A program made the position numbers and the translations under genes. From a virus (Duplodnaviria > Heunggongvirae > Uroviricota > Caudoviricetes), in the IMG/VR virus record IMGVR_UViG_3300033804_000036: a DNA stretch of 26,405 nucleotides. One strand, written 5' to 3'. The notes under the pieces were generated by a model. It was not told the DNA's origin. It saw only the letters and a program-made list of their open reading frames with translations, and searched no databases. Below are positions 1 through 23,969 of the stretch, one piece after another; positions within the stretch are counted from its first letter, which is position 1, and each line of letters begins with the position of its first letter.

Positions 1-617
1 ATTTTCTCGCCGAAAATCCTTCCTGACATTGCAACATCCCGCTTAATCACGTAGACGGCGCCGTTAGGATAAAACAGTAACGGAAGATTCTGGCTGACAA
101 GGTTGTCGCCCTCGAGATCAATGTTCAGAAAAGATTCTAGTTCATGCCCGAAAGGCTTCATGGAAAACATCCAGTAAGGATGCTGAGAAACCTTTGTGAC
201 TGACAAAACCGTGTCGACACCAGTTGTCTTGGCAATCTGGACACAGCGGTCAATGTCCTCGGGAGTTCTGAAAGGGCTTGTAGGCTGAAGCATGACAACA
301 TGACTTATTGTTCTCTGCTTTTTCTTCTCAAACTTTCGGATAGCATGAATCGTCGGCAGAATACTGTCAACGTCTTCCCCCAGCTTAGCCGGCCTTTTGA
401 AAGGAGCATGACCACCATACTGTTTCGCTATTTTTCTGATTTCATCATCGTTCGTGCTGACCAAGCAGTAGTCCAGGCTTTTCGCGTTTTTAGCAGCTTC
501 AATAGTCCAAGCAATTAATGGTCTGCCGCCTAGTTCTTTAATGTTTTTACGCGGTACACGTTGCGATCCGCCTCGAGCCAGAATAACTCCTAGAACAGCA
601 CCGCTATTATTTGACAT
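1..617 (-). CDS. neuA: Acylneuraminate (CMP-nonulosonate) cytidylyltransferase, NeuA/PseF family; runs off the left edge
   Basis: Not in ORF track. Hand translation from ATG 617: MSNNSGAVLGVILARGGSQRVPRKNIKELGGRPLIAWTIEAAK...VSTNDDEI...MLQPTSPFRTPEDID...YPNGAVYV, containing the ARGGS-x-R-x-x-x-KN, LQPTSP and NGAVY family motifs. Confidence 0.93.
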   Translation of the reverse strand, partial: MSNNSGAVLGVILARGGSQRVPRKNIKELGGRPLIAWTIEAAKNAKSLDYCLVSTNDDEIRKIAKQYGGHAPFKRPAKLGEDVDSILPTIHAIRKFEKKKQRTISHVVMLQPTSPFRTPEDIDRCVQIAKTTGVDTVLSVTKVSQHPYWMFSMKPFGHELESFLNIDLEGDNLVSQNLPLLFYPNGAVYVIKRDVAMSGRIFGEK

Positions 618-618
618 T

Positions 619-657
619 GGTTCCCGAAAAAAGAAATATAGGGAATCTGCTTATAAG
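619..657 (-). promoter_or_regulatory. Promoter of neuA-like gene: palindromic TATA CTTATAAG (650-657) and variant leader motif GGGAACC (619-625)
   Basis: 24-nt TATA-to-motif spacing, matching the other promoters in the window. Confidence 0.55.
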
Positions 658-792
658 CGTTAAGGCGTCAGCGTTATAGTCTGCGTTGATCCGTCGATGT
701 GGATGACGGTTACTGTTATCGTCTGGTTGAACCCGAGTTTAACTGAAACATTTCCCGTGAAGCTTACGGTTGCTGTAGCTCCTAAACCCCCG

Positions 793-2088
793 CTACAGAG
801 ACAGTGCCACTAGGCCCAAGCCTATCAGCACAAGCAGCCCGTAGTTCGGTGTGGGCGGAGGTGTGACAGCCGTAAACGTGGCAGTTAATGTTTGATTGTT
901 CATCTCGGAAGTGATTACCAGCGACAACGGGTTGTCTATGGGAAGCGCAGCCGAACCTGTCAGAGACCATGACGTGAAAGTGTAGCCAGTTCCAGCAGTC
1001 GCAGCGAAGTTAACTGTGTCGCCTACGTTGAATTGATGCGGACCGGTTGAAGGTGATACTGTTCCGCCTCCGTCTGGAGACACAGCTATGCTCAACGTTA
1101 TCTGCGGTATAGGTATCGAAGTGAACAGTGGAGACAAAGTTTGCCCAGCCATGGCAGACGTGATCGTTAAGGGCAACGGGTTTGTTGAACCGATGTTTGA
1201 CGAGCCGAGTTGCCAATGGTCCAGTTGATAGCTTGAGTTAGGCGTTGCCGTAAACATGTATGACTGGCCAACAGTGTAGCTCGCGGTTCCAGACGGGCTT
1301 ACCGTGCCGTTAGCACCTGCAGTCACGGTCAACTGTATCGTTGGCACAGCAAAGTACAGGTTAATAGGTATTGTTTGGCCTGCAACGATGGTTATTGTTT
1401 GGGCAGGCAACGTTTGGTTTTGATATGTAGCCGTCACTGTGTAGGTTCCAGCAGTAACCGTGAAAGTGAGCGGTGTACCACTGGTTGTTGTGGTTCCTGA
1501 TTGTCCGTCCAAGGTTACGCCCGCACCAGCAAGAGGGATGCTGCCCTGAAATGCATTAACAACTACGTACGCATTTTGCGATGGAGGAGGTGCCGCAAGG
1601 TCGACAGAAGCGTAGATGCTGACGATAATAGGTGCTGTTCCAGCAATCGTTGGCAGAGCAGATGGGAGTGTACCATCATAAGCTTTTGTTGTGATGCTTA
1701 CGTACATGTGCTGGTCGCTAACTGTTCCTGACCCCCAAGCACCCGCAGCCCACCCATTTGCGCCATTGCCAGCCGGAGTCTGCATCACGAGCCAGTACCA
1801 GTTATTATTGACTAGACTGAACGTGCCGGTAAGCTTAATAGTGTTCCACGTGCTCGCCGTAAGACCTGCGTATTCAACGCTGTCTGCAATCTTCGCTCCA
1901 GAGGTAACATCATAGATGCCGAAGACACCCCTGTTGTAGCCGCCATAGTCAACCTGAGGCAAGTAGACGTTGATACTTCCCGTATAGGTTCCTGTGGTGC
2001 CTGTAAACTGAAATTTACAGCCGTTTAATGCACCTCCAAGGTAGTTGATGACAGTCTCAACTATCTGGTTGCCAAGAATAGTGGTCAT
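793..2088 (-). CDS. Thr/Gly-rich multi-domain beta protein: N-terminal beta-sandwich, Ig/InlB B-repeat-like domains, C-terminal TM anchor; putative virion spike
   Basis: 431 aa; repeats such as ATPNSSYQLDHW and ATAGTGYTFTSW followed by NPL; Pro linker then YGLLVLIGLGLVALSL at the C-terminus; no N-terminal signal peptide; GGAGAACC leader at 2092-2099. Confidence 0.75.
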   Translation of the reverse strand: MTTILGNQIVETVINYLGGALNGCKFQFTGTTGTYTGSINVYLPQVDYGGYNRGVFGIYDVTSGAKIADSVEYAGLTASTWNTIKLTGTFSLVNNNWYWLVMQTPAGNGANGWAAGAWGSGTVSDQHMYVSITTKAYDGTLPSALPTIAGTAPIIVSIYASVDLAAPPPSQNAYVVVNAFQGSIPLAGAGVTLDGQSGTTTTSGTPLTFTVTAGTYTVTATYQNQTLPAQTITIVAGQTIPINLYFAVPTIQLTVTAGANGTVSPSGTASYTVGQSYMFTATPNSSYQLDHWQLGSSNIGSTNPLPLTITSAMAGQTLSPLFTSIPIPQITLSIAVSPDGGGTVSPSTGPHQFNVGDTVNFAATAGTGYTFTSWSLTGSAALPIDNPLSLVITSEMNNQTLTATFTAVTPPPTPNYGLLVLIGLGLVALSL

Positions 2089-2217
2089 GTTGGTTCTCCA
2101 AAAGTATTTTATCTAGGAAGCTTTAAAAGGGTTTGGTTTAAGCCAGCCAGGTGACAGAGGAATGGCAGCGGTTGCTGATGCTGGAATAGGCAGTGGTGTA
2201 GTGAACAAATCAATAAC

Positions 2218-2688
2218 TCATGTACCTGACTGGTTGTAGGATATTCCTTTGACATATATCATGCCAGTCGTGTTTCCCGGCGCACCAGTCCATTCAACAC
2301 CATAATATAAACCAAAGAGAGTTACAGCTGGAATGTTCAGATATGCTCCTGCACCTGTCTGATTAGGCTCTATGTAAAGCGTAGATCCAGCCTTTGCAGC
2401 CGCGCCTTCGAAAAGAATGTGAGTTGCTGCGTTTATGGCGGTTCCATCAGTTGTGTTTTTGTAGACTCGCAGTCTGTATGTTACAGCATTTGTGGGAACT
2501 AGGTAATAGGTTATAGAATTTATAATGGCTCCAACGTTCAAAGAGTTCAAGTTGCTAAACTGGAAAGGTTGAGTTATAGAATCGCCGAAGCCTTTGCTTA
2601 CATCAAAATAGTGTTCTGCACCTGTAGTGCTTCCGATCCACCACCAGCAGGGAATCTGTCTGGCTAAATTTCCAATTTGTAATGTCAT
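2218..2688 (-). CDS. Hypothetical beta-rich protein (156 aa), putative virion component
   Basis: Likely start MTLQIGN at 2688, overlapping the upstream TGA (ATGA), rather than the track start 2766. Confidence 0.65.
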   Translation of the reverse strand: MTLQIGNLARQIPCWWWIGSTTGAEHYFDVSKGFGDSITQPFQFSNLNSLNVGAIINSITYYLVPTNAVTYRLRVYKNTTDGTAINAATHILFEGAAAKAGSTLYIEPNQTGAGAYLNIPAVTLFGLYYGVEWTGAPGNTTGMIYVKGISYNQSGT

Positions 2689-3326
2689 GTTGAAAGAGCC
2701 ACCCCTACCGCATGAACAAACAGATAACCTGTTCCTACGTAGAGCATCACGTCTATTGTAGTGCATTTCAATGGAAAAGTGTAGGGCACTATTCGAGCTA
2801 TGAAATGCGGAACTCTTTTAGCACCATTGAATCTTACCCAGCAATCGTTGGTTGCCCAAAGAGCTATTTGCGTTGCCTGAAACAATGGAACAGCAGAGTC
2901 GGCTGCATGTGCATTTGTGCCAATGATGTATTGAACATCGGTTGTTAAGAAATTTATCCATGCAAAATCATCATACACTCCTTGATTTGACACGACAGGC
3001 AGAGGATTCAGTTCTCCAACTCGTTGGTAACCGCCTGTTGCTAATTCATAGGATAGTTCGACAGGGGTGTGTTCCTTCACTTCCCCTTGTTCGTTGCCGA
3101 CTATTACATCGCGGAATTCTCTGACGTCTTCCATAGCCATGACTTTAAGTTTAACCCATTTACGTCCGCCCGCCATAGTCAAGTCTCTCGGGCCGACAGG
3201 CAGTCTAACGTAGCCTTTAGTGCTGCTTGTAATGTCTTCAAGACTCATGCCAAGCATGCCCATTTCAACAGGTATCACTTGAACATTAGCATTGGAAACT
3301 GGCTTAGCAGGTTGTTGATGAGCCAT
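2685..3326 (-). CDS. Hypothetical protein (213 aa) with beta-rich C-terminal domain, putative virion component
   Basis: First gene after the leftward arm of the divergent promoter; GGAGAACC-AACAG-ATG leader. Confidence 0.7.
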   Translation of the reverse strand: MAHQQPAKPVSNANVQVIPVEMGMLGMSLEDITSSTKGYVRLPVGPRDLTMAGGRKWVKLKVMAMEDVREFRDVIVGNEQGEVKEHTPVELSYELATGGYQRVGELNPLPVVSNQGVYDDFAWINFLTTDVQYIIGTNAHAADSAVPLFQATQIALWATNDCWVRFNGAKRVPHFIARIVPYTFPLKCTTIDVMLYVGTGYLFVHAVGVALST

Positions 3327-3331
3327 CTGTT

Positions 3332-3402
3332 GGTTCTCCTAGACTATATTTTAATTGAGAAGCTTTAAAAGTATTCCTCATAACAGATTAATCAGGAGAA
3401 CC
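3332..3402. promoter_or_regulatory. Symmetric bidirectional promoter with a single central TATA box
   Basis: CTTTAAAAG at 3363-3371 reads as TATA on both strands; inverted GGAGAACC motifs at 3332-3339 (-) and 3395-3402 (+), each 23 nt from the box. Confidence 0.75.
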
Positions 3403-3420
3403 AACTGGAGTTGAAAGGTA

Positions 3421-3795
3421 ATGCCTGAATCAGATCAGCCTCTGCTAGAAAGCGCACGTGTCACAACCAACAGCACCACGTATGTTGACCTAATAAAATA
3501 CAAGGTTGACCCGAACAAAATGGTGTTCGTTCGGGACGTCACAGTCGAATTAAATTCTACGTCTGGAAGCCCAACTGTCAGCCTCAGCATCAACGGCGAA
3601 ACGAAACTTAGAGATTTTCAGCCGGTTGACACTGACTTGAAAATGGCTTTCGGCGGACACCTCGCGTTCCGCGGCACGTTGAGAGATCCAGCCATCTGGA
3701 TAAGAGTCAAGAATGACGGGACGACAAACACGACTTTCACGGTTGTGATAACAGGTGTCACAGTCGACTTTACGCCTGTGAAGAGGCCGCCGTGA
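3421..3795 (+). CDS. Small beta-rich protein (124 aa), possible single jelly-roll minor capsid protein
   Basis: Alternating hydrophobic beta-strand pattern; first gene of the rightward operon. Fold is inference. Confidence 0.6.
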   Translation: MPESDQPLLESARVTTNSTTYVDLIKYKVDPNKMVFVRDVTVELNSTSGSPTVSLSINGETKLRDFQPVDTDLKMAFGGHLAFRGTLRDPAIWIRVKNDGTTNTTFTVVITGVTVDFTPVKRPP

Positions 3796-3805
3796 GGTGA
3801 AATGA

Positions 3806-4123
3806 GTGAAAACAGCAGTTTTTAACACGCGTGTGCAGGCGGCAACAAACTTTTTCACGGCAGACCTTACGCCTTCATACACGCCCTGCATATTCCGCAT
3901 CTACATCACAGTCGACACAGGCGGAGTGTTAAGTATTCGCAGAACAAACGGGGGAACAACCGTCGCTGAAAACCTGAACGGCGGATTAGCTCTCTCAGCA
4001 AACTGCGCGTACATGTGGGACATAGTGGTTGACCAAGGAGACACGATAAACTTCCAGACAACCGTCACTGCCACAGTGCTCAAATTATCAGTTGACGAAG
4101 TAAGCGTAGGCACGAGTGGATAA
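3806..4123 (+). CDS. Small beta-rich protein (105 aa), putative virion component
   Basis: GTG start with SD GAGGTGA at 3794-3800; tightly coupled to neighbours. Confidence 0.65.
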   Translation: MKTAVFNTRVQAATNFFTADLTPSYTPCIFRIYITVDTGGVLSIRRTNGGTTVAENLNGGLALSANCAYMWDIVVDQGDTINFQTTVTATVLKLSVDEVSVGTSG

Positions 4124-4125
4124 GA

Positions 4126-5664
4126 ATGGTGAAGTATCCGCCGCAGGGCAATCTTCCATTAGCAGCCCCAGGGATAGGGTCTCCAACGTGGGTCGGCTGG
4201 ACTGATGGAATCAACGTTTATGCTGAAAACACGGTAACTGGACAAGAATTGACTGCCGCGAATTTGCCTGCTCTTGTTACCGCCGTCAAGTCAGCGGTGG
4301 GTTCGTCTGGTGGAGGGTTGTACATGAAACGGGCCACGTATCCTTTGCCAGCCACGTTGGATTTAAGCTTGAACAATTTGGAGTTTGTCTGCGAAGATGG
4401 AACGCTTTTGCAAGCTGCTGACGCAGCAAATCCCGCTATTCAATGTCTCGGCTCATTGTCAACTTTCATTTTTAAAACAGTTTGGAAAGGATTCAGCCTT
4501 GTCAAAACTGGAACCACCAACATCAATACTGGTTTACTGATAAAAAACGCGCATAGCCTAGACTTGCATGACGTTGACGTTCAGTATTTTCAAGATTCGA
4601 TGCAATTGTCAGAGTCGGAGCACGTTCACATTTTTGGCGGAAGCAGATTCAGAGATTTCAAACGTTATGGAGTGTACATGCCTAACACAGCCTATAACGG
4701 CGCCAACATTTTGCTAGACGATTTAGAAACCGCAACGTCCCAGACTAATTCTGAAAACGTCCACATGGAATCTTTAGCCGACAACGTTTCTTGGAACAAC
4801 GTTGTTTTCAACGCGTGCAAATTTTGGAATTCAGGAACTGGCGGTTACGGAGTACGCTTAACAAGCAGTGGAATATTACGGAATCCAGTATGGGGCTTGA
4901 CTTTTAACGGTGGAATGTTTGAACGAACCCCTACTGCATTCAGCATTGACGGGTCAGCCATGGTAGCAGGAGTAGAACTGAATTGTCCAGTACTGTTCGG
5001 ACCTATGACAAACGGCATCGTAGTCAACGAAGCAACTGGGGCAACAAAACTTTTAGTGAAAAGTCCCTTTTTGAGCAGTGTTACAAACGGATTCTTGGGA
5101 ACAAACGGAGAAATACGCATCCTGAACAGGGCGTATCTCCAATCTGTAACAACCGCCTACAGCGGCGCAGTTCACGGTTTACCCATGCCGAACAAATACC
5201 ATTGGGACATGAACAGCCCTCCAACCACAACCACGGCCGCATTCACTGCTGGGAGAGTTTACATGAGTCCCATATACATTCCCATGCTTCTCAGAGCTAG
5301 AAAAATAGGGTTCGTGATAGATAGTGTGAACGCAAACTTCACAGTAGGCTTATATCAAGACAACGGATCAACCCCTGTCGGAGGAACGCTTATAGTTCAA
5401 TCTGCAAGCACTGCTGGCGCAGGAACATTCACAAGAATGGAGAACACAATAGCAGACACCTATCTTGAAGAAGGATTATATTGGATAGCCATAGAAGCAG
5501 ATGCGGCAGCAGTATGTTTGAGGGGATCTGGAGACACTTATGTTGGAGGCAGCTATGTTGGAAGTTATTATGATAGAGGCGGAGGTTACGGAACACTTAC
5601 AACACCTTGTCCAGCCCTAAGCGGCACTGGCGCAACAGCCAGCGAATATTTACTAACAGGTTAG
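4126..5664 (+). CDS. Right-handed beta-helix (pectate lyase-like/tailspike-like) protein with C-terminal beta-sandwich; putative receptor-binding spike
   Basis: 512 aa; GGGLYMKRATYPLPATL resembles the start of Pectate_lyase_3-type domains; Asn/Gly-rich rung-like repeats; C-terminal domain with GLYQD...GLYWIAI. Confidence 0.7.
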   Translation: MVKYPPQGNLPLAAPGIGSPTWVGWTDGINVYAENTVTGQELTAANLPALVTAVKSAVGSSGGGLYMKRATYPLPATLDLSLNNLEFVCEDGTLLQAADAANPAIQCLGSLSTFIFKTVWKGFSLVKTGTTNINTGLLIKNAHSLDLHDVDVQYFQDSMQLSESEHVHIFGGSRFRDFKRYGVYMPNTAYNGANILLDDLETATSQTNSENVHMESLADNVSWNNVVFNACKFWNSGTGGYGVRLTSSGILRNPVWGLTFNGGMFERTPTAFSIDGSAMVAGVELNCPVLFGPMTNGIVVNEATGATKLLVKSPFLSSVTNGFLGTNGEIRILNRAYLQSVTTAYSGAVHGLPMPNKYHWDMNSPPTTTTAAFTAGRVYMSPIYIPMLLRARKIGFVIDSVNANFTVGLYQDNGSTPVGGTLIVQSASTAGAGTFTRMENTIADTYLEEGLYWIAIEADAAAVCLRGSGDTYVGGSYVGSYYDRGGGYGTLTTPCPALSGTGATASEYLLTG

Positions 5665-6789
5665 AAGATTCAGGTATTTCCTCATGTCTTTCTTTGTTTT
5701 GTTCCATCTGTGAACGTCGAAGAGAAGCACGTTCTGTTTAGCCCACCCAGCGTTGGGGCAAACAGTCTCACGGGATCTGCGGTGTCTATGGAAAACGGTG
5801 CTTTCAGGAATTAATTTCCTGTAATAACCGACGTTCTGTCCTGGTACGCCTTGAGAGATTCCAACGTCCTTCATATGTTGCAAAAATGCGTCTCTATCCC
5901 ATGTTGAAAGAACAGGCATCAGATAGTAATTTGGACGGACACCCTTAGGAAGTGGATAGTTGTAGACGGATTTGAACGGCAGCTTCAAATGTTGAAGGAA
6001 AAACTCTGCGTTTTCTCTTTGTATCCTGTTAAAGTCATCTAGTTTATGCAGTTGCATAATGCCGAAGGCGGCTTGAGCTTCAGTCATCCTTGCGTTAGTG
6101 CATACCACGTCGGTCATCGTGCCGTAGATGTTGCCGTGGTTCCGAATGTTCAACGCGCGCTCATAGAATCGAGGATCGTCAGTGACTATCATTCCTCCTT
6201 CGCCGAGAGTTGTCATTGTTTTTGATTCTTGAAAAGAAAACGTGCTCATGTTGGCGAACACGCCGGTTTTTTCTCCTCTGTACGTTGCGCCTAACGATTG
6301 AGCAGCATCTTCGAGGACAAGCACGTCGGCTCTGCTTGCTATCTCATTGATTTCATCGTAGTCACAGGGCATACCGTTCAATGAAACTGGAAGTATCAGC
6401 TTGGTTTTAGGCGACATCGCCTTTTTGATTTGCTTCGGGTCGATGTTCAAAGTGTTTTTCTGAATGTCTGCAAACACTGGTGTTGCTCCGACGCGAAGAA
6501 TCGCCGTACCCGTAGCCACAAAACTAAGGGGAGTAGTGATAACTTCGTCTCCCCGTTTAATGCCCAACGCGGCCAACGCAACTTCTAAAGCAGTGGTCCC
6601 GTTGGAAACGCTTACGGCATATTTGCAGCCGATGTAATCTGCAAAGTTTCTTTCGAATGCCTGAACAAATTCTCCGCCCTTGAAATCCATAAAGAACCTG
6701 CTCAGTTTCCCAGTCAGAATGACCTGTTCAACTATCTTTAGCTCGCTGCTATCAAACCGGTCCAAGTTGGTTCTCAGAAGCATATTCAT
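5653..6789 (-). CDS. DegT/DnrJ/EryC1/StrS-family PLP-dependent sugar aminotransferase
   Basis: Motifs VSNGTTALEVAL, GDEVITTPLSFVAT, LEDAAQ, SFQESKTMTTLGEGG (PLP lysine). Confidence 0.93.
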   Translation of the reverse strand: MNMLLRTNLDRFDSSELKIVEQVILTGKLSRFFMDFKGGEFVQAFERNFADYIGCKYAVSVSNGTTALEVALAALGIKRGDEVITTPLSFVATGTAILRVGATPVFADIQKNTLNIDPKQIKKAMSPKTKLILPVSLNGMPCDYDEINEIASRADVLVLEDAAQSLGATYRGEKTGVFANMSTFSFQESKTMTTLGEGGMIVTDDPRFYERALNIRNHGNIYGTMTDVVCTNARMTEAQAAFGIMQLHKLDDFNRIQRENAEFFLQHLKLPFKSVYNYPLPKGVRPNYYLMPVLSTWDRDAFLQHMKDVGISQGVPGQNVGYYRKLIPESTVFHRHRRSRETVCPNAGWAKQNVLLFDVHRWNKTKKDMRKYLNLLTC

Positions 6790-6863
6790 AGCTTCTGCTT
6801 AAAAAAGTTTGCAAACACAAGCCTTAAAACACTTTCAAAATAGAGTAATTTTGGAGAACCTCA

Positions 6864-8243
6864 ATGAGCGGCTCAGAAGCGATCCTCATCATCCAACAGG
6901 CAGGCTCCGTGGCAGGCGGCGCAACAAATCCCGCGTATGGACAGTACACTTACATGTATCCTTTTCCAACAGTTACAATCAGAGCAACGCCGTCGGCGAA
7001 CTATGCTTTCGACCATTTTGAAGTTAACGGAGTCGTGCACGCCGAAAACCCCATGGTTCTCTCGCTCAGCGAAAACTCTCTTTCGCTTGCAGTAACGGCA
7101 TACACAGTTGTAGTTGACGTCTACTGGAATGTTACATCTACACAGCCTACTCCACCAGCACCGCCGATATCAGATTCAGGACAGGGAAACCTGCATGTTA
7201 ACCCGCTTTCAGCCGACGGCAGCAACGTCACTCCTGAAGCCGAGATTTCTTATCCAGAAGGCTCTCCAGAATTCGCGTACATTCTAGAAGTGATAGGAAA
7301 CTGGAGTTATTACACTTCGCCGCAGGCTGCTGTTCCGAACACGGCATGTCGAACAACAGTGTCTGCAACTGACGCAGACGGAGCTTCAGCAGGCTCAGCG
7401 GTAAAAGTAAGCTCGGCCATAGCATACATCTACGGGTACATGCCTGGCAGCGAAAACTGGACGCCTAACAGTTGCACAGCGTTCATTCTGCCAGACGTTC
7501 CAACAGTCCAGATCATAGGTGCAAGCGGAACCTACAACGTGACTACAGCCTTGACGATGCAGGGCAACCTGAACTTTCAAGGATCACAGACTGGAAGCGT
7601 CTCAACTGTTTCAACAACACCGCCGCCAACCACGTTTACGCTGACACTGGTTCAATCAACTGGCGGAACAGTTTCTGCGCCTCAACTGACAGGTTTCACG
7701 TCCACCGCGCCATACGACACGATTGATATCACTGCTGCGCCGACCGTGACGAGTCTGGCGATAACAGGCTACACGTTTGACCATTGGATAGTGGATGGCA
7801 CAGCGATATCTGACACTCGAAACCCGCTTCCTCTGCTGATGAACAGTGATCACACGGTTCAAGCAGTCTTCAGTCAGGGAACAGGGCCGACAGCCTATTC
7901 AGACGTGACTATAACAGTCACGGGGCAGGGAACAACAACTCCTGCTGCAGGCAACTATCCGAACACGTACCTGCAGATAGCCACACTGGATATATCAGCC
8001 ACGCCAGCATCCGGCTGGACCTACCAGAAAATGCAGCGCAACGGCGCAGACTGGACAGGAGCTAACCCAGGCGAATTCCTAAACCTCGGCATCACCGAAA
8101 ACATCAACGTCATCTTCACTGAACAGACCACAACACCGCCACAGCCAGCGGATAACACTATGCTCATTGCAGGGGTAGCGGTTGCAGGCGCCGTAGTTGT
8201 CGGCGGAGCATACGCTTATTCTAAAAGAAAGAAGAAGAAATAG
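6864..8243 (+). CDS. Thr/Pro-rich Ig/InlB B-repeat-like protein with C-terminal TM anchor and basic tail; putative virion spike
   Basis: 459 aa; ATPSANYAFDHF, TGYTFDHW, ATPASGWTY repeats; ends MLIAGVAVAGAVVVGGAYAYSKRKKKK; no signal peptide; GGAGAACC leader at 6853-6860. Confidence 0.78.
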   Translation: MSGSEAILIIQQAGSVAGGATNPAYGQYTYMYPFPTVTIRATPSANYAFDHFEVNGVVHAENPMVLSLSENSLSLAVTAYTVVVDVYWNVTSTQPTPPAPPISDSGQGNLHVNPLSADGSNVTPEAEISYPEGSPEFAYILEVIGNWSYYTSPQAAVPNTACRTTVSATDADGASAGSAVKVSSAIAYIYGYMPGSENWTPNSCTAFILPDVPTVQIIGASGTYNVTTALTMQGNLNFQGSQTGSVSTVSTTPPPTTFTLTLVQSTGGTVSAPQLTGFTSTAPYDTIDITAAPTVTSLAITGYTFDHWIVDGTAISDTRNPLPLLMNSDHTVQAVFSQGTGPTAYSDVTITVTGQGTTTPAAGNYPNTYLQIATLDISATPASGWTYQKMQRNGADWTGANPGEFLNLGITENINVIFTEQTTTPPQPADNTMLIAGVAVAGAVVVGGAYAYSKRKKKK

Positions 8244-8884: not shown

Positions 8885-8885
8885 T

Positions 8886-10791: not shown

Positions 10792-10950
10792 ATGAAGCCT
10801 CCGAAAGCCATAGTTGTCGAGCCGAAAGCTCCGCCAGACATAAAAGGCATTACGCATCTCCCCGTACCTGTATGCTACATTAGACATGCCTACATGAACA
10901 GGAAAACGGGAACGGTTGTTCATCAATCAGTTATCTGTCGTAAGAAGTAA
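10792..10950 (+). CDS. Small basic hypothetical protein (52 aa), probably leaderless
   Basis: Not in track. MKPPKAIVVEPKAPPDIKGITHLPVPVCYIRHAYMNRKTGTVVHQSVICRKK; GAAAGG + TTTTTAAC (10761-10768) is 23 nt before ATG. Confidence 0.6.
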   Translation: MKPPKAIVVEPKAPPDIKGITHLPVPVCYIRHAYMNRKTGTVVHQSVICRKK

Positions 10951-11485
10951 TCGAATAAGTTCGCTTCATTTTTCTTATTGTCTGGTGAGGAATAAAAATC
11001 ATGTCGTCAGGCACGCTCATGTCGAGGTACATGCCGCTGCCTACAACAGCGCGTTTGCCAACTGTGACGCCTGGCATTATCGTGCTGTTTGAACCTACAA
11101 AACTGTTTTTCTCGCAGATTATAGATCCTCTTCGTATGGCCCTTTTTTCTTCAGGGCTTGCGTCGTTCATAAACAGGCTTTTCGGAGTGTCGGAGGCTGT
11201 TAGTAACGTGCAGTTGTAGCCGACAACCACGTTTTCGTTCAGTATTATTTCGTCGCGTCCAGCCAAAACAGTGCCCGCGCCGATCTGGCTTCCAGCCTTC
11301 ATAGTCAATTTTGGAACGAGAACAACCACACTACCGAGAAGCGTGTTTTTACCCATCATCAACGTGATGTTCGGACGGAAATGCGCTCCCCTGTAAATCG
11401 TTGCCGTCTTATGAAAACTGCTTTGAGGCCCGAACTGCGAAGCAAAAATATGCGCTGGATAACTGTAGCTTGTTCCAACCTCCAC
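10931..11485 (-). CDS. Hexapeptide-repeat (left-handed beta-helix) acyltransferase
   Basis: LbH repeats, e.g. IICEKNSFVGSNSTIMPGVTVGKRAVVGSG. Confidence 0.88.
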   Translation of the reverse strand: MEVGTSYSYPAHIFASQFGPQSSFHKTATIYRGAHFRPNITLMMGKNTLLGSVVVLVPKLTMKAGSQIGAGTVLAGRDEIILNENVVVGYNCTLLTASDTPKSLFMNDASPEEKRAIRRGSIICEKNSFVGSNSTIMPGVTVGKRAVVGSGMYLDMSVPDDMIFIPHQTIRKMKRTYSITSYDR

Positions 11486-12528: not shown

Positions 12529-12541
12529 GTTAACACCGGCT
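12497..12541. repeat. Perfect 21-bp tandem duplication (GCTGCTTTCATGTTAACACCG x2) at a gene junction
   Basis: Units 12497-12517 and 12518-12538; yields MKAAGVN-MKAAVV. Confidence 0.92.
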
Positions 12542-12995
12542 CCAAGACTGGAGGCAACAAGAGATCTTCGACTCTGCGCCAATCCCATAGAGGAAATTTC
12601 AAGGTAAAACCGTCAACTTCGGTTGGCGGCCTTAAAACAAAATCAGAAAAATTCTTGAACGTACCATCTTCTTTCAGGTCTTGAAGACGTCTTCCAAGAT
12701 ACAAAATGTCAAACGGTCTAGACGATCGCTGCTTTGCCCACTCAATAATAGTGTTGCCGTAGACGTTGCATGAAAACCTGTGCGGATTAACGTCTTCGCG
12801 AATATCCCATTTTTCATGAAACCCGGTTCCACGGAGAACCTTGAAGTTTTCTCCTTTCAGCATAATGTTAATCGGTTTCGGCGTATGATCTCCTGGACCT
12901 TTGCATACGATGAGAAAGGGTGTAATCCCTTCCTTACGTAACATTTCACGAATCCACAGAGATTCCAATCCAAACCCATACGCTAAAGCGATCAT
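12525..12995 (-). CDS. Hypothetical protein (156 aa), possibly a divergent PP-loop/adenine nucleotide alpha-hydrolase-like domain
   Basis: Likely start MIALAYGFGLES at 12995 (ATGA overlap with the zinc-ribbon gene); strand plus GFGLES loosely resembles SGGxDS. Confidence 0.5.
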   Translation of the reverse strand: MIALAYGFGLESLWIREMLRKEGITPFLIVCKGPGDHTPKPINIMLKGENFKVLRGTGFHEKWDIREDVNPHRFSCNVYGNTIIEWAKQRSSRPFDILYLGRRLQDLKEDGTFKNFSDFVLRPPTEVDGFTLKFPLWDWRRVEDLLLPPVLEPVLT

Positions 12996-13172: not shown

Positions 13173-13619
13173 CTAGAAAAAACTCAAGTTCTTTCGAAAA
13201 AAGATTTTAGTGCCATATTGTCCGCCGCACATTATTCCCATAGCCATTTTAGACTCTTCAAAAATTTCTTCGGATAAGGCTTCTGGTGAACAGTAGACGG
13301 CGCCACACATCCAAGCAACTATAAAATCTTCACATCTGTCGCCAACATAGACGAGAGTATCCTTCTTTCCCATATGTTTCCGTACGAAGTTTAAACCACT
13401 GTGTTTGATGGCGATGTAGTTTGCTCCTTTCTCAAAACGTACAGCACGCATGCCAAAAGTTGACCTTATCATGCGCTCTTGATCAGCACTATCTCTTTTA
13501 CTCAACAACCATAGAACTGCACCCTTCTTTTGAAGACGCAAACAAAGATCATAAGTTACAGGCCCATGAAAGCGAAAAAGTGTTCCGTCAACGTCAAAAG
13601 CAATATGAAGCCTAGCCAT
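13173..13619 (-). CDS. HAD-superfamily hydrolase/phosphatase
   Basis: Motif I FDVDGTL; motif IV-like YVGDRCED. Confidence 0.8.
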   Translation of the reverse strand: MARLHIAFDVDGTLFRFHGPVTYDLCLRLQKKGAVLWLLSKRDSADQERMIRSTFGMRAVRFEKGANYIAIKHSGLNFVRKHMGKKDTLVYVGDRCEDFIVAWMCGAVYCSPEALSEEIFEESKMAMGIMCGGQYGTKIFFRKNLSFF

Positions 13620-14628
13620 ATTCTTTCAGAACCTCCTCTAATGGCTGTGCCTTGAAGTATGGCGACTTCAGAATGTAAGCGTCTCCTTCTTTTGCCTGTG
13701 TATGTAGGCAGCCATTGCCTGTTGCGTTGATGGTCATTTTTTTAGCGGTTACTATGTGTGTTGCAAGCATGTTACGATAGCCTTTCCAAATCGGGTTTAT
13801 CAAGTATCTCGGATGCTCGCCTTTTTTGAAGTAGTGACCGTCGGAGATAGTGGCTATGAAATCCGGGTTTGTTTCGAGTTGATGTAGAACGGCGGCTGCG
13901 TCGCACGCTTTCTTTTCATCATGGTATTTCGTCATGAAAGACGCAACCCAAGAAGTAAAATAGACTGCGTCTTTGATGTCGAGAACCTGTTCGCTGAAGT
14001 CGAAGCCTACCAGAATTATCGGTTCACATTGAAGCGCAACCGCTAAATTCCAGAGGAAAGCGCCCACGTTGCCGATGCCGCTCATCAGAGGCTTACCGTT
14101 CGTCAACAAAAAGAGAAGATAACTTTGTGTATCATAATATTCTTTGCCCTGCTTGTCTTTTGGAACATCGAGCATCGGAGTGTACCACCAGATTTTGCCG
14201 CCGTAACCTTTCCATTTCTGAATTATCTTTGGATCTGCAAAACCGCTGAAAACAGCGTTCATCTGCCCCGCATATTTCCTGACTATAGGACTCGTGTAGA
14301 AACCGGCGATTTTGTAACTGGCATCAACTGAACTCGTAGCGTAGGGTATGATGCATGCTTTGAGGCAGGCAGCCAATGTTCTGTCACAGGACAGGACGGG
14401 ATGACGCCATTTTTCCTGCACTATCAGATTAAGCTGATCCAGTTTTTTTAAACTTGGACCGGCCCCAACAACGATGCAGGGTTCCTTTTTCGCCGGCAAA
14501 TCCTGCAGGTTAAGACCGTCGCGGACAAGCGGCAGATTTCGGTACAGATGATCCATCCATAGGGGAAGAAGGGTGTTTTTTGTGTTTTTTCCAACCATAG
14601 GGGAAGCTGAAGGCACAATGACACTCAA
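13612..14628 (-). CDS. DUF115 / Maf-like (MptE-like fold) putative glycosyltransferase
   Basis: CIVVGAGPSL, SCDRTL, SVDAS, GNVGAFLWNLA, ILVGFDFS, INATGNG: the typical DUF115 motif series. Confidence 0.8.
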   Translation of the reverse strand: MSVIVPSASPMVGKNTKNTLLPLWMDHLYRNLPLVRDGLNLQDLPAKKEPCIVVGAGPSLKKLDQLNLIVQEKWRHPVLSCDRTLAACLKACIIPYATSSVDASYKIAGFYTSPIVRKYAGQMNAVFSGFADPKIIQKWKGYGGKIWWYTPMLDVPKDKQGKEYYDTQSYLLFLLTNGKPLMSGIGNVGAFLWNLAVALQCEPIILVGFDFSEQVLDIKDAVYFTSWVASFMTKYHDEKKACDAAAVLHQLETNPDFIATISDGHYFKKGEHPRYLINPIWKGYRNMLATHIVTAKKMTINATGNGCLHTQAKEGDAYILKSPYFKAQPLEEVLKEYG

Positions 14629-14705
14629 GTTTTCCGCCTGATATCAGCAAGTCGTCTCTTCAACTGTTCATTGCTCATCTGACGCAGTGTTACAATCTGT
14701 TTCAC
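14625..14705 (-). CDS. 26-aa mini-protein coupled at both ends
   Basis: Not in track. GTG start overlaps the radical SAM TGA; its TGA overlaps the next TTG start; MKQIVTLRQMSNEQLKRRLADIRRKT. Confidence 0.5.
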   Translation of the reverse strand: MKQIVTLRQMSNEQLKRRLADIRRKT

Positions 14706-16339
14706 GGGTTACCGCCTGACTTTTGAGTTTCCCGAGCTTCTAGAGTTTCGTCAAACTTTTTCAGGCGTTCCAAATTTGCAACTGCAATGCTGAAACTTTT
14801 CAGGTCTGTTCGCAGCAAAGACTGTAGGCCAGCAAGTTCTACATCGCTGAAATCGGTTAGGTTGCAACTAATTCTTGTAGCGTCATCAAGCAGTAGGATC
14901 CAGCGTTTCAGCGCCTCATCTCTAATCTTCTCTTTCATCGCAGGCAGATTCTTCATGAGACTGCTTTTAGACGGCATTTCAACAGGTAATTCCCATTTCA
15001 GTTTCATGAAAGTGCCGAGGTCGGGGTCAGCGAGAAACTCTTTTTCTTCTGTTGTCATGTGCTGCTCGATGATTTTGTCCTTGTATTTGTCGTACAATTC
15101 CGTGCCGGGATACGGCTGCAGCAGGAACGGTACGCAGTGAATCTGATTGTCTATGAAGAATTGTAGTGTGGCAATAACGTCGCGGATGGTTTCGCCTGGG
15201 AAGCCCACGATGAAACTCATCACCGGGTTGACTGAAGCCCCATGTGTCGCTTCTATCGCCGCCGACATTTGCTCCGGCGTTTGTCCCTTGCCCATCTCGT
15301 TGAGAATGCGGGAACTTGCAGTTTCTCCGCCGTAGCTTATGTAGCTCAGGCCGACATCATGACCTTTAGCCAACATTTCCTGATCAACTGTTCTGCTGTG
15401 TCCAACGATGCCCCAGTGCAGCTTCGTCGCCAAATCGTATTCTTCAAGTTTGCCGCAGAAATCGTAGAACCATTTCCTGTTGACGGTGAAGTTTTCGTCT
15501 ATGAAACTGATGAAGTTGACAGAGTACGCTACACGTAGATGCAGCAGAAGCCGGGCAACATAGTCGGGGCTGTGTTGACGGAAAAGTTTTCCTTGAAATT
15601 CTTTGCCGTAGACTTTGGTTTGGCAGGACGGATGGAAACAGAAGTAACATTTGTAGGGGCAGCCTAGGCTTGCCATTGCGTCGAGACGACGTAGGGGTTC
15701 ACCTTCATTCATCGGGATTAAACCCATCGATTCTTGACTGTACGGGATCGCGCTGTACTGTAGGTAAGTGGTGATTGGCGCCCAGTCGTAGGCTGGAAAC
15801 GGGATTTCCTCATCCATTTTTTCTTCAGGTATAAGCGGTCGCATCCCGCTTAGCCTTGTGTTTTTGCCTTCGCGGTAGACGAGTCCTTTGATTTTGCTCC
15901 AGTTTTTGTCGTCAAGATGTTCAAGAATCTCCCGCCATGTTACGTAGGCTTCGCCGACTGCGCCTATGTCGAATTCAGGCATCCACCGCATGATGTCAAA
16001 CGGCTGGCTGGACATGAATCCTCCGCCGCCGACGATTAAGGCGGCTGGATATTCTTCGCGGCACACTTTTACGATGGGCATGATAGCTTTGACCTGTGTG
16101 GTTAAACCGCTGATGGCTATGACGTTCCAGGTTTCCTTCTGGTCTTTCTTCTTCTTGATTTCCTGTCGGAAAGCGTCTATCGGCCAACGGTAGGCGTTGT
16201 TGTCGATGAAGCCGATGCCGTAGCCCATCTGTTCAGTTATGCCTACAAGCTGCAGCAGGCCGTATGGCGGATGCTGCGGCGGTTCTTCGGTTCTTATCTC
16301 GGGGAAAATATGTAGGACATATGTTCCGTATTCGGTCAT
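14702..16339 (-). CDS. Cobalamin (B12)-binding radical SAM protein, class B methyltransferase-like
   Basis: N-terminal B12 domain (PPYGLLQL, IAISGLTT, VGGGGF, VGEAY); CPYKCYFC CxxxCxxC; FIDENF, GGETAS, FIVGFPGET, PYPGT. Confidence 0.9.
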   Translation of the reverse strand: MTEYGTYVLHIFPEIRTEEPPQHPPYGLLQLVGITEQMGYGIGFIDNNAYRWPIDAFRQEIKKKKDQKETWNVIAISGLTTQVKAIMPIVKVCREEYPAALIVGGGGFMSSQPFDIMRWMPEFDIGAVGEAYVTWREILEHLDDKNWSKIKGLVYREGKNTRLSGMRPLIPEEKMDEEIPFPAYDWAPITTYLQYSAIPYSQESMGLIPMNEGEPLRRLDAMASLGCPYKCYFCFHPSCQTKVYGKEFQGKLFRQHSPDYVARLLLHLRVAYSVNFISFIDENFTVNRKWFYDFCGKLEEYDLATKLHWGIVGHSRTVDQEMLAKGHDVGLSYISYGGETASSRILNEMGKGQTPEQMSAAIEATHGASVNPVMSFIVGFPGETIRDVIATLQFFIDNQIHCVPFLLQPYPGTELYDKYKDKIIEQHMTTEEKEFLADPDLGTFMKLKWELPVEMPSKSSLMKNLPAMKEKIRDEALKRWILLLDDATRISCNLTDFSDVELAGLQSLLRTDLKSFSIAVANLERLKKFDETLEARETQKSGGNP

Positions 16340-17613: not shown

Positions 17614-18095
17614 TTCGGCTGATTCTCCAAAAATTTCTTCAGTTTTATAACGGCAGGATGGTTCACATGATCAGGCTCTCTGCGAGGGGGATTAGTTGTG
17701 ATAATCACATCTCGTGGATGCAGCAGAAAACCGACAAGCTGTGCAACTTCTTCTCGTGACAATGAGATGCTCGGTTTCGGCTGCTTCATAAGTCCAGTAA
17801 TCTCTTCTGGTGTTGATGGTCTTGGAGGATGCATTCCGTCAAAGTAGAAGACGCTGTCCGCATCAGTGCCAGCTTGGAAGGCTGCATTGTGCAGGTATGG
17901 CAGTTCACCGTCTATGAATAGGAATTCGATGAAAAGGTCAAATTGGCCGTTCACCAGACGAGAAACAATATCGTCAAAAGACTCGCGTCCACGCCGCATT
18001 TTGTCAAGTTCATTCTTGTTTTCAACGGAAACAGCGATGGTTGTCAGCTTAGGCTGCTCCGTCTTCTTAACTTTCTCCTCAGATTGGGCAGACAA
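17610..18095 (-). CDS. Ribbon-helix-helix domain protein, putative transcriptional regulator
   Basis: TTIAVSVENKNELDKMRRGRESFDDIVSRLV is typical of archaeal RHH (CopG/VapB-like) domains. Confidence 0.65.
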   Translation of the reverse strand: MSAQSEEKVKKTEQPKLTTIAVSVENKNELDKMRRGRESFDDIVSRLVNGQFDLFIEFLFIDGELPYLHNAAFQAGTDADSVFYFDGMHPPRPSTPEEITGLMKQPKPSISLSREEVAQLVGFLLHPRDVIITTNPPRREPDHVNHPAVIKLKKFLENQPK

Positions 18096-18152
18096 GAAGA
18101 TCGGAACTATCTTATAGAAACCACTTCTATAAAAGCGTTATAGAACTTATAT

Positions 18153-18314
18153 CTACTCAACCTTGTCAGTGTCAAGAAGCTTCGTCTTAGTTTTCTTAGG
18201 TTCAATGAAAACACTGCTTCCGCCCAGATGACCCATCGCCATACGGGCAAAAGCAGACGTTGCATCAACGTTTTTTTTGCGTTCACGACTTTCGCTGGTA
18301 ATTATTTCACTCAA
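18153..18314 (-). CDS. Small hypothetical protein (53 aa)
   Basis: Not in track. TTG start overlaps the upstream TGA; MSEIITSESRERKKNVDATSAFARMAMGHLGGSSVFIEPKKTKTKLLDTDKVE. Confidence 0.55.
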   Translation of the reverse strand: MSEIITSESRERKKNVDATSAFARMAMGHLGGSSVFIEPKKTKTKLLDTDKVE

Positions 18315-19414
18315 ACCTGACCCTCAACAATATTTGGCATCTTTAAGTTTTTAACTTTTTCTAGCCACTCGTGGAAAGGCATACATGTTATTCCAGGACC
18401 GAACAGTGTGCCTTCTTCTGAACAGTTGAAAGTTTCAAACCATGCAGGAACTTTACGGGCGAGAGTAAGCCAGCCAGCGCGGTATGTCTGGAAAACCTTG
18501 TCGGCGTAAGCGTAAGTTTTGAAGCAGGGATTATATGTTTTCTTGTACATTTGAGAAGCCGTGTAACTGTCGCAGTGTCTTATCCACATGCTGAAGTAGG
18601 GAGTGTCCTGAAATTTAGTTCCGTCTGGATAGCCTAGGTCAATGCCGATGAGCGCAATCGGAGAACGGCGCAGAAGAGTGTGGTTTAAAACCCAGATGGT
18701 GCAGCCGACGTTTCCTCCGCAACTCACTGCCGGAATACCGTTTGGGTTTTGATGGCTGACCGTCATAAGATTTTGCAGACGTGTCCAAGATTCGCTGCTC
18801 TGCAGTCCATCCATCATTCCGTCAAACCAGTAGATCTGCACCTTGTTCTTTTTACAGATTTTCACGACATCTGGGTTCACACTGTTCACAAGACATGTTT
18901 TGATTTGCGAACCGTACTTCTCTACAAGCGGATGATCGTACCATTTCGTTATTATAGTTTGACCGTCAACCGTGGCTGTTAAATCTGGAATTATTCCCCT
19001 CTCGAGAAGAGGGATAAGCATGCTGTCGCAGGCGCATATGAGACCGTGATATTCTTTATGGTCAATCGCTGATTGCAGCAAGTCTAAATGTTTATGCATG
19101 TGGATGCTTGGACCTGAACCGACAACGATGCTGGGGCCTTTCGGCACGATTTCAGGATGTTCAGGAACCAGTTTGGATATTGAGTCGCCTTCCAAAATAT
19201 CCGTTAAGTTGTGGGCGAAATTGGTGCACCACAGTCCCATTAATCCTCGTCCAGAAGCTCTTTCCTCAGCAGACGCCTTCGGCGAAATGTCTTTCGACTT
19301 GAAAGTAAGCCAGTCACCCCATGTTCGGGCTTTATACCCATCATCTTCCTTCAACCTTTTTAACCGTTCAAAAGTTGTTGGGGGAACATCAACCACAATA
19401 CGTTTAGTGAGCAT
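18311..19414 (-). CDS. DUF115 / Maf-like protein with N-terminal RHH-like domain
   Basis: SIVVGSGPSI, ACDSML, TVDGQ, GGNVG, ALIGIDLG, NCSEEG; N-terminus RIVVDVPPTTFERLKRLK...TWGDWL; apparently leaderless (TATA-like box about 21 nt upstream). Confidence 0.78.
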   Translation of the reverse strand: MLTKRIVVDVPPTTFERLKRLKEDDGYKARTWGDWLTFKSKDISPKASAEERASGRGLMGLWCTNFAHNLTDILEGDSISKLVPEHPEIVPKGPSIVVGSGPSIHMHKHLDLLQSAIDHKEYHGLICACDSMLIPLLERGIIPDLTATVDGQTIITKWYDHPLVEKYGSQIKTCLVNSVNPDVVKICKKNKVQIYWFDGMMDGLQSSESWTRLQNLMTVSHQNPNGIPAVSCGGNVGCTIWVLNHTLLRRSPIALIGIDLGYPDGTKFQDTPYFSMWIRHCDSYTASQMYKKTYNPCFKTYAYADKVFQTYRAGWLTLARKVPAWFETFNCSEEGTLFGPGITCMPFHEWLEKVKNLKMPNIVEGQV

Positions 19415-23964: not shown

Positions 23965-23969
23965 CTGTT

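Follow-up and report, generated by a model that had tools for sequence, protein, structure and literature searches.

Recognition, adhesion, and evasion are governed by the nonulosonic acids that surfaces carry. In the systems of the bacterial Maf (motility accessory factor; PseD, PseE) enzymes, flagellin nonulosonate O-glycosyltransferases compared here through examples from Magnetospirillum magneticum (5mu5), Clostridium botulinum, Geobacillus, and Shewanella (Maf-1/Maf-2 with GlfM), GlfM and the TPR domain are the elements of acceptor specificity (bioRxiv 10.1101/2023.12.03.569772). A CMP-legionaminic acid pathway, LegB/C/H/G/I/F, is described from Campylobacter jejuni and from Halorubrum sp. 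PV6 (PMC6137143). The closest case of an archaeal virion protein with a legionaminic-type sugar is the VP4 spike of HRPV-1, which is reported to carry host-made 5-N-formyl-legionaminic acid on its N-glycan, a decoration important for adsorption (Kandiba et al. 2012, in PMC6137143). Here we analyze a stretch of 26,405 nucleotides (the window) of IMG/VR virus record IMGVR_UViG_3300033804_000036, whose 26.4 kb form the right-hand end of a 90,405-bp contig of a virus-like element, putatively from uncultured archaea, on which genes for a sugar pathway of this general kind and for proteins of the DUF115 family lie beside a capsid-like operon.

A reading of the window from its letters alone (the original prediction) had proposed a nonulosonate-type system with which a probable archaeal virus O-glycosylates its own virion proteins. 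The proposal to which our analysis leads is that a virus-encoded, Maf-like cytoplasmic glycosylation system puts a tailored legionaminic (Leg)-type sugar on the element's own surface proteins, and we give it about an even chance of being right. The Leg-type pathway, the Maf-like fold, the neighboring capsid-like jelly roll, and the recurrence of the locus in relatives all speak for the predicted system; a dehydratase that was not found and the absence of Maf acceptor domains speak against it. Literature searches turned up no description of a virus-encoded Maf/nonulosonate system in archaeal viruses or phages, and the Bathyarchaeia virome paper mentions none, in keeping with the earlier remark that no such archaeal viral system had been described.

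General Features of the Locus

The window contains 32 plausible genes and no tRNA. The genes named in the original prediction were each verified by Pfam at the positions given for them (Table 1). An assembly from another data set (L001), 100% identical to the window, reaches 6.9 kb to the left of base 1 and carries there, in order, the rest of neuA, a gene for a NeuB of 271 amino acids (aa), a 95-aa ORFan, a NeuC-type Epimerase_2 gene, a WbqC gene, small open reading frames (ORFs), and a fourth DUF115 gene. The window thus holds the N-terminal 205 aa of NeuA, whose full gene encodes 249 aa (L001 11472-12221), and NeuB lies to the left of base 1, where it had been guessed to be. Seven related loci, from six other elements, were fetched for comparison: L002/L006/L009 (all on one 109.8-kb contig), L004, L007, L008, L010, L011, and L012.

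The DUF115 Proteins

The DUF115 proteins of the window (groups A, B, and C) and the one encoded in the left flank (group D, 358 aa; Pfam PF01973, E 4.6e-23) belong to four orthologous groups, starred in the tree, that are common to several elements, from which it follows that the paralogy is old and that each copy has been retained. Group C has orthologues in L002 and L004 within its starred clade, and group B is found in all seven related elements whose locus spans the region (the DUF115 of L012 is unplaced), being 53-62% identical to the copies in L002, L004, L007, and L008.

Structure comparison was carried out with DUF115-A, of the four proteins. Its AlphaFold2 (AF2) model, with a predicted local distance difference test score (pLDDT) of 86.7, matches the catalytic domain of Magnetospirillum Maf (5mu5) at VIA Z 23.1 (256 residues aligned, root-mean-square deviation 3.4), compared with Z 15.1 and 199 aligned residues, 57 fewer, for the pyrophosphokinase MptE (8sd5) and Z of about 7.8 for sialyltransferases. 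Foldseek returns the same ranking (5mu5, E 1.7e-9, vs MptE, 4.9e-5), and the AlphaFold DB neighbors of DUF115-A are long proteins named motility associated factor glycosyltransferase/DUF115. The PseD flagellin-modification model is the only NCBIfam match for all four DUF115 proteins (E 4.5e-16 to 8e-3), and a sequence search with DUF115-D reaches proteins of 590-622 aa that are built like Maf, with PF01973 in the center. Residues D130, D150, and D259 and a GGN-x-G motif are invariant in the DUF115 alignment (A1); the catalytic acidic residues of Maf 5mu5 are E324 and D415 (bioRxiv 10.1101/2020.06.03.131540), and Maf also has a conserved Ser. Pfam recognizes no other glycosyltransferase family in the window, which leaves the DUF115 proteins as the sole candidate users of a CMP-sugar. 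Judged by the model, the DUF115 domain is Maf-like, and the proteins would work like Maf at best without being full members of that family. The comparison of Maf with MptE that the original prediction had called for thus came out mostly in favor of Maf, by fold, AlphaFold DB neighbors, and NCBIfam, with MptE favored by PDB profile match.

Inteins, some with LAGLIDADG, lie in or beside the GGN-x-G motif of the group B DUF115 gene in L004 (11840-14083) and L007 (12386-16129), at two slightly different sites, and a second intein in the L007 gene follows a GYPEGT...YF segment. Their position in an invariant motif argues for a strongly constrained DUF115 gene.

A Predicted Legionaminic-Type Sugar Pathway

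Counterparts of LegC, LegH, LegG (Epimerase_2), and LegF are present at the level of Pfam and NCBIfam families. The best NCBIfam match of NeuA is PseF (127 bits), and the DegT aminotransferase, 67% identical to its L002/L009 copy, matches the LegC family (218 bits) and PseC (214 bits), in all three cases under the cut-off; the left-handed beta-helix (LbH) acetyltransferase falls in the NeuD/PglB/VioB subfamily (E 1.2e-10). The 271-aa NeuB scores 52.8 bits with Pfam NeuB, over profile positions 1-163 of 241. The pseudaminic acid (Pse) route uses a GNAT acetyltransferase, PseH, and the hydrolase PseG. For the comparison of Leg with Pse we used the legionaminic pathway scheme in PMC6137143. Because the acetyltransferase is of the LbH type and the hydrolysing epimerase an Epimerase_2 protein, and not PseH and PseG, the gene set follows legionaminic-acid rather than pseudaminic logic at the level of enzyme families. 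The nonulosonate-type pathway of the original prediction therefore stands, with enzymes that fit a legionaminic-type route by family.

The product is best described as a putative Leg-type nonulosonate that is further tailored, with the GFO/IDH/MocA oxidoreductase, WbqC, the HAD phosphatase, and the class B radical SAM enzyme as candidates for the tailoring. The GFO/IDH/MocA protein, whose gene is also found in L002, L004, and L012, has weak NCBIfam matches to inositol 2-dehydrogenase and archaeal UDP-GlcNAc 3-dehydrogenase, and the HAD protein is 47% identical to a copy in L004. NCBIfam matches of the B12 radical SAM enzyme are of the BchE/ApyD/PhpK type; homologues occur in L002, L004, L007, L010, and L012, and six of the seven related elements have the gene beside DUF115. 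In L012 this gene (6294-8984) contains inteins.

A Polysacc_synt_2 4,6-dehydratase (250 bits) is encoded precisely between NeuB and NeuC in two relatives, L009 and L012, where by family assignment it completes a Leg-type gene set. In the element described here the same slot is filled by the 95-aa ORFan, some 1.1-1.4 kb to the left of base 1 (L001:13206-13493). The dehydratase gene has apparently been lost or replaced in this element, and the 4-keto-6-deoxy intermediate would come from the host unless a dehydratase gene lies elsewhere on the contig. An alternative substrate for NeuB, a 2,3-diacetamido sugar made by the GFO, DegT, and LbH enzymes acting at C3, was set aside on chemical reasoning, since the nonulosonate would then bear an N-acyl group at C6, which would keep its pyranose ring from closing. 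The neuA homologue of the 109.8-kb relative (L009:11587-12203) is called as two ORFs, of 141 and 68 aa; a frameshift, decay to a pseudogene, or faulty assembly could account for the split.

Candidate Acceptors and a Shared Leader Motif

Directly upstream of the DUF115-A gene are three tandem genes for small paralogous proteins (alignment A3) in which the N-terminus (GGFLRTNFR), the center, and the C-terminus are conserved, with variable Ser/Thr/Gly-rich segments between them. Serine and threonine make up 0.19-0.22 of their residues, and they are nearly uncharged (Lys, Arg, Asp, and Glu together 0.04-0.06). The family comprises 84 clusters of stand-alone proteins of 77-183 aa, and an N-terminus of the form GG(Y/F)LRTN(F/W/Y)R stands directly upstream of the RHH-DUF115 genes in the window and in L002, L004, L008, L010, and L012; L011 has three tandem copies with the N-terminal motif and no DUF115 detected in its 2.3 kb. 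Conserved ends around a variable, exposed middle resemble flagellin, the natural Maf acceptor, a likeness that we offer as analogy, not as evidence. We infer that the small paralogues are the prime candidate acceptors. Feature searches of the ESM Atlas with a small paralogue gave leads only, to viral tail-fiber-tip or lectin-like clusters at 0.86-0.91, and a predicted complex of DUF115-A with a small paralogue scored 0.00, with the partner's own fold at a pLDDT of about 45, and is evidence neither way.

The three genes share direct repeats of 153, 112, and 56 nt (window 19636-21074) that are 63-90% identical to the reference copy and spaced about 520-543 nt apart; a junction repeat (19857-20009 and 20379-20531) is 90% identical. 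These repeats are compatible with gene conversion. In L008 three tandem ORFs of about 75-85 aa (17701-18444), each beginning GGYLRTNYR, lie just upstream of RHH-DUF115 and might represent shortened family members or contain frameshifts. A reading of the paralogues as precursors of ribosomally synthesized and post-translationally modified peptides (tandem precursors that share a conserved leader, accompanied by a radical SAM enzyme and by a small protein for recognition) was rated lower, given their conserved center and C-terminus and their length of 140-180 aa.

The RHH-like protein, whose weak Pfam matches cover residues 18-49, is always encoded directly upstream of the group B DUF115, with homologues in L002, L004, L007, L008, and L010, and is a candidate regulator or acceptor-specificity factor. 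Two further Ser/Thr-rich proteins carry Flg_new_2 repeats. The 431-aa protein (S+T 0.24), which resembles proteins upstream of the relatives' capsid operon in the repeat region only, is a candidate surface protein and acceptor; the 459-aa protein (S+T 0.23), with a transmembrane segment at residue 431, is a candidate membrane-anchored surface protein. The enzymes of the locus have S+T of 0.10-0.13, compared with 0.19-0.24 in these neighbors. By a heuristic Kyte-Doolittle scan none of the Ser/Thr-rich proteins has an N-terminal hydrophobic segment, as expected from their earlier description as lacking signal peptides. Of the label "Ser/Thr-rich structural genes" that they had also been given, the first half is borne out by composition and the second is conjecture.

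An 11-mer, GGAGAACCAAC, occurs exactly five times in the window, each time immediately before a start codon (2089, 3329, 3395, 21015, and 23967), and so marks the gene for the 431-aa protein, a divergent pair (3329/3395), the small-paralogue operon, and the capsid operon; with up to one mismatch there are 8 matches where 0.42 would be expected. Through this shared leader the Ser/Thr-rich genes and the capsid operon are linked in their regulation. A TATA-like box resembling CTTTTAAAGC lies about 25 nt upstream of the GGAGAACCAAC leaders and suggests an archaeal host. Upstream of neuA the arrangement is GCTTATAAGC ... CGGGAACCAATG, in agreement with the earlier observation that neuA uses a variant of the structural-gene promoter layout. 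Between the divergent ORFan operons (3327-3420), inverted GGAGAACCAAC copies (3329-3339 on the - strand, 3395-3405 on the + strand) flank a single CTTTTAAAG box. A scan of the window for bacterial-type promoters and terminators did no better than on shuffled sequence and is unsuited to archaeal DNA.

The Capsid-Like Operon

The 188-aa member of a conserved core trio of genes is the most conserved protein of the group, with 69 homologues at 47-89% identity, most of them at 50% or above. Its AF2 model (pLDDT 77.6) consists of an N-terminal helix and a single jelly roll, and its best VIA match among 48,161 PDB chains is the SPV1 capsid protein 6oj0_T (135 of 178 residues, 16% identity), with P23-77 VP17 and HCIV-1 ranking below it. 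SPV1 also gives the best global TM-score, 0.48/0.50, among the Foldseek matches listed, and look-alike clusters in the ESM Atlas (TM-score 0.73-0.86) are labeled viral or archaeal. Foldseek searches of BFVD and PDB with the model pointed to no convincing single family, and an Atlas feature search with the 187-aa protein gave nothing consistent. On the strength of the model, the 188-aa protein is probably the major capsid protein, and we consider it likely that the element is a capsid-forming virus.

Homologues of the membrane proteins at the head of the operon (41-73% identity) precede the 188-aa gene in L002, L004, L007, and L008. The two paralogues in the window (23521-23964 and 24072-24779) have near-identical N-terminal halves and correspond to a single copy in the relatives. 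Upstream, relative L006 encodes a 541-aa P-loop protein with a weak HerA/DUF87 match (E 9.5e-4, under the Pfam cut-off), and in L004 (1-437) an intein lies in the 1063-aa protein that occupies the same position.

Gene Order in Related Elements

All homologues of DUF115-A and of the 188-aa protein are on metagenomic contigs. A common order (membrane protein, 188-aa, 187-aa, and roughly 145-aa proteins, small Gly/Ser/Thr-rich proteins, RHH-like protein, DUF115, B12 radical SAM enzyme) recurs in L002/L006/L009, L004, L007, L008, L010, and L012, and is followed by further DUF115 and sugar genes in L002/L009, L004, and L012. Within the DNA fetched, L004 has tailoring genes only, and fuller linkage to the pathway is seen in the window with L001, in L002/L009, and in L012.

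The sugar genes are contiguous in the relatives and here are split by two blocks (793-5664 and 6864-10376), most of whose genes have no homologue in the relatives; one of these is HNH-like. The glycosylation genes do lie at three separate places in this element, as the original prediction had it, but this is not a built-in arrangement, being derived through insertions specific to the element.

Proposed Mechanism and Alternatives

The steps that follow are proposed from family membership. The pathway would start from a 4-keto-6-deoxy sugar derived from UDP- or GDP-GlcNAc, made in relatives by their own Polysacc_synt_2 dehydratase and here probably by the host. DegT would add an amino group and the LbH enzyme would N-acetylate it; the NeuC-type epimerase would then release and epimerize the sugar, the short NeuB would condense it with phosphoenolpyruvate, and NeuA would activate the product with CMP. 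The GFO/IDH/MocA, WbqC, HAD, and B12 radical SAM proteins may tailor the sugar, the last probably as a methylase. Finally, the Maf-like DUF115 proteins A, B, and C of the window and D of the left flank would transfer the CMP-sugar in the cytoplasm to Ser/Thr residues of element proteins without signal peptides. The foremost candidate acceptors would be the three small paralogues directly upstream, with their flagellin-like layout, followed by the Thr/Ser-rich, tail-anchored Flg_new_2 proteins. Recognition of the acceptors may fall to the RHH-like protein, together with the N-termini of DUF115-A and -B, which are RHH-like too, in the manner of GlfM and the TPR domain.

Several findings weigh against this proposal, and some of them lend themselves to other explanations. 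The DUF115 proteins all have 338-425 aa, most of it filled by the domain, as against about 600 aa for Maf, and they are without the N- and C-terminal acceptor (flagellin)-binding domains of Maf, with short RHH-like N-termini on A and B instead. A PDB profile search with the DUF115 family reached MptE only (E 1.8e-7, over about 59 residues around the GxGPS loop) and left Maf unreached, and single-sequence PDB searches with the three window proteins likewise gave only weak MptE matches. Such results would suit MptE-like ATP-dependent kinases or pyrophosphokinases, or some other nucleotide-using enzyme that acts, in place of a glycosyltransferase, on a small molecule (a sugar or a cofactor precursor, together with the B12 radical SAM enzyme), as would the universal unit of RHH-like protein, DUF115, and B12 radical SAM enzyme, which shows no tie to sugar genes in the stretches seen of L007, L008, and L010. 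We nevertheless hold this reading to be very improbable: the fold is nearer to Maf than to MptE, the sequence match to MptE is confined to the GxGPS loop (Cst-II-type sialyltransferases have a GxGPS-like motif), the NCBIfam matches are to PseD only, no pterin or folate genes lie near the DUF115 genes, a single metabolic step would not be expected to call for four paralogues, and the CMP-sugar pathway would have no transferase. The pathway has weaknesses of its own. All NCBIfam matches of the sugar enzymes lie under the curated equivalog cut-offs, so that substrate specificity is not established by them; NeuB is short, divergent, and without a SAF domain (49 bits in NCBIfam, cut-off 400); and tblastn with a relative's Polysacc_synt_2 protein found no 4,6-dehydratase in the window or in the 6.9 kb to its left in L001, where one had been guessed to lie. 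A Leg-type sugar could also be destined for host structures (S-layer, pili, archaella, or the AglB lipid-linked oligosaccharide), resulting in receptor masking or superinfection exclusion or in an indirect dressing of host-glycosylated virion proteins. That L007 keeps DUF115 with no small paralogues detectable, and that the Maf protein-acceptor domains are missing, would be in line with such a target. In HRPV-1 VP4, the one archaeal virion protein known to bear a legionaminic derivative, the route is host N-glycosylation (PMC6137143), and the legionaminyl transferase of archaeal N-glycans, still unidentified (PMC6137143), could be a DUF115 protein. Even so, a host target appears unlikely, because the transferase genes are fixed beside the capsid operon and co-ordered with the small Ser/Thr-rich proteins in the window and five relatives, because four old transferase groups suit several defined protein acceptors better than a single lipid-linked glycan, and because the window contains no gene for a Dol-P glycosyltransferase, a flippase, or AglB.

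The viral nature of the element is also open to challenge. No terminase, portal, or clear packaging ATPase was recognized, the weak DUF87 match being in a relative only, and PHROGs gave nothing useful for the window ORFans. The INPHARED phages yielded no match to the window by megablast or to DUF115-D and the 188-aa protein by tblastn, and scans of IMG/VR with DUF115-A, the 188-aa protein, and the 188-aa alignment found no relative. The SPV1 match, at Z 8.1, is borderline, at the level that the tool itself terms middling, and jelly rolls are common folds; Foldseek against PDB gave the 188-aa model no match with E below 1e-3. The locus might then be a plasmid-like or integrated cellular surface-glycosylation island whose "structural" genes encode ordinary cell-surface proteins. 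Flg_new_2 repeats and C-terminal anchors are indeed common in archaeal and bacterial cell-surface proteins, and one relative (L012) is borne on a metagenome-assembled genome deposited at NCBI. A cellular island of this kind is decidedly unlikely, however, when set against surface-like proteins that have no signal peptides by the heuristic scan, contigs of 40-110 kb in which nearly every gene is an ORFan and which carry inteins and homing-endonuclease genes, and a most conserved protein that is a jelly roll, matched best by a capsid protein, equal in size, from an archaeal virus. The 188-aa alignment found no relative among the 185,579 species-representative genomes of GTDB, a result that counts against viral status and also against a cellular origin.

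We therefore retain the proposal of a Maf-like cytoplasmic system that decorates the element's own surface proteins. A more far-reaching version of it is tentative and, in our estimate, rather doubtful: that the elements are large archaeal viruses (90-110 kb) of an unrecognized lineage, with jelly-roll capsid proteins like that of SPV1 and with a core morphogenetic module that always includes a B12 radical SAM enzyme, a Maf-like transferase, and an RHH specificity factor. In these viruses groups A-D would O-link, in the cytoplasm, a virus-made, methylated Leg-type sugar to dedicated small subunits, flagellin-like in having a variable, glycosylated middle between conserved ends, that decorate the particle surface. 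Archaea would then have their first known case of protein glycosylation with a sialic-acid-like sugar encoded by a virus.

Other Genes of the Window

In the ORFan block between neuA and degT, a search of the relatives found one homologue only, a weak match of ORF 3421-3795 in L006 (27% over 125 aa), and none for the other four ORFs. In the second inserted block, the 224-aa protein (9702-10376) has several CxxC pairs, an ...INHKNG... motif, and no Pfam match, features that make it probably a homing endonuclease; ORF 8886-9245 has homologues elsewhere in the relatives.

Table 1. Features of the Window, with Coordinates, Strand, and Supporting Evidence
Feature	Coordinates	Strand	Evidence
NeuA/LegF-like CMP-nonulosonate synthetase	3-617	-	Pfam CTP_transf_3, E 2.9e-23
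431-aa protein, almost uncharged, two Flg_new_2 repeats, hydrophobic C-terminus	793-2088	-	Pfam PF18998, E 1.3e-20
Divergent ORFan block between neuA and degT	2218-5664	2218-2766, 2685-3326 -; 3421-3795, 3806-4123, 4126-5664 +	No Pfam family
DegT-family pyridoxal phosphate aminotransferase (LegC/PseC-like)	5653-6789	-	Pfam, E 1.8e-90
459-aa protein, Flg_new_2 repeat, C-terminal membrane anchor followed by Lys/Arg tail	6864-8243	+	Pfam PF18998, E 6.2e-9
Small ORFs and 224-aa Cys-rich HNH-like protein (part of second insertion)	8244-10376	-	No Pfam family
LbH N-acetyltransferase (LegH/PglD/NeuD-like)	10931-11485	-	Pfam Hexapep, E 3.6e-13
GFO/IDH/MocA NAD-dependent sugar oxidoreductase, candidate tailoring step	11485-12588	-	Pfam, E 3.2e-17
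Minimal HAD-type phosphatase	13173-13619	-	Weak Pfam/NCBIfam matches; DxDGT and GDxxxD motifs in translation
DUF115 group C, 338 aa, without N-terminal extension	13612-14628	-	Pfam PF01973, E 1.5e-18
B12-binding radical SAM enzyme (class B, methyltransferase-like)	14702-16339	-	Pfam Radical_SAM and B12-binding
DUF115 group B, 425 aa	16336-17613	-	Pfam PF01973, E 6.7e-15
RHH-like protein, 161 aa	17610-18095	-	Weak Pfam VAPB_antitox/DUF7557 matches
DUF115 group A, 367 aa, RHH-like N-terminus (modeled protein)	18311-19414	-	Pfam PF01973, E 5e-19
Three tandem 158-176-aa Gly/Ala/Ser/Thr-rich paralogues	19472-21013	-	Alignment A3
Conserved core trio, 147, 187, and 188 aa	21806-23506	-	Homologues; AF2 model of 188-aa protein
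Two paralogous membrane proteins, 147 and 235 aa, head of capsid operon	23521-24779	-	Transmembrane segments

Comparison with Known Systems

If the proposal is right, the virus would supply both the pathway and the cytoplasmic O-transferases itself, which would be a new mode of virion decoration. Minimal Maf-type enzymes without flagellin-binding domains would be useful for work on how Maf selects its acceptors, and the DUF115 proteins are candidates for the legionaminyl transferase that archaeal N-glycosylation calls for. The conserved neighborhood offers a marker set for large archaeal elements missed by virus-detection catalogues (none were found in IMG/VR or INPHARED).

With the bacterial Maf systems the locus shares the central PF01973 domain and its fold, linkage to CMP-nonulosonate pathway genes, several paralogues per locus, and, on our reading, action in the cytoplasm on Ser/Thr-rich proteins of the polymer type that have no signal peptide and that vary in the middle but not at the ends. 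A small cis-encoded partner stands beside one DUF115 paralogue, in the position of GlfM (bioRxiv 10.1101/2023.12.03.569772). It differs from those systems in that RHH-like N-termini on much shorter proteins take the place of the TPR/flagellin-binding end domains, there is no flagellin gene, the transferases are always coupled to a B12 radical SAM enzyme, the host is putatively archaeal and the carrier virus-like, and transferase activity is predicted. MptE, an archaeal 6-hydroxymethyl-7,8-dihydropterin pyrophosphokinase, is like the DUF115 proteins in Pfam family, GxGPS nucleotide loop, and related fold; it is unlike them in being a single domain of about 230 aa that serves cofactor metabolism, whereas the four DUF115 paralogues are longer, match Maf better, and sit in a sugar and capsid context.

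Set beside LegB/C/H/G/I/F, the element has the aminotransferase, the LbH acetyltransferase, the 2-epimerase, and the NeuB- and NeuA-type enzymes. For LegB, relatives have a Polysacc_synt_2 gene in the expected place and this element, in the DNA seen, does not. Its NeuB is short and lacks SAF, its matches are below equivalog level, and its extra GFO/IDH/MocA, WbqC, HAD, and B12 radical SAM genes predict a modified, possibly methylated, derivative. The capsid operon recalls SPV1 (Portogloboviridae) and P23-77 and HCIV-1 (Halopanivirales), viruses with a single jelly roll and an internal membrane, in its jelly-roll protein of about 188 aa with an N-terminal helix and in the second conserved protein of the same size and the small membrane proteins that adjoin it; it departs from them in far larger genomes (90-110 kb), in the weakness of the match (Z 8.1, 16% identity), and in a packaging ATPase that is only hinted at. 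In HRPV-1 both the sugar and the machinery for N-glycosylation come from the host, and the virus itself encodes no pathway, whereas the element analyzed here encodes both a pathway and candidate O-transferases.

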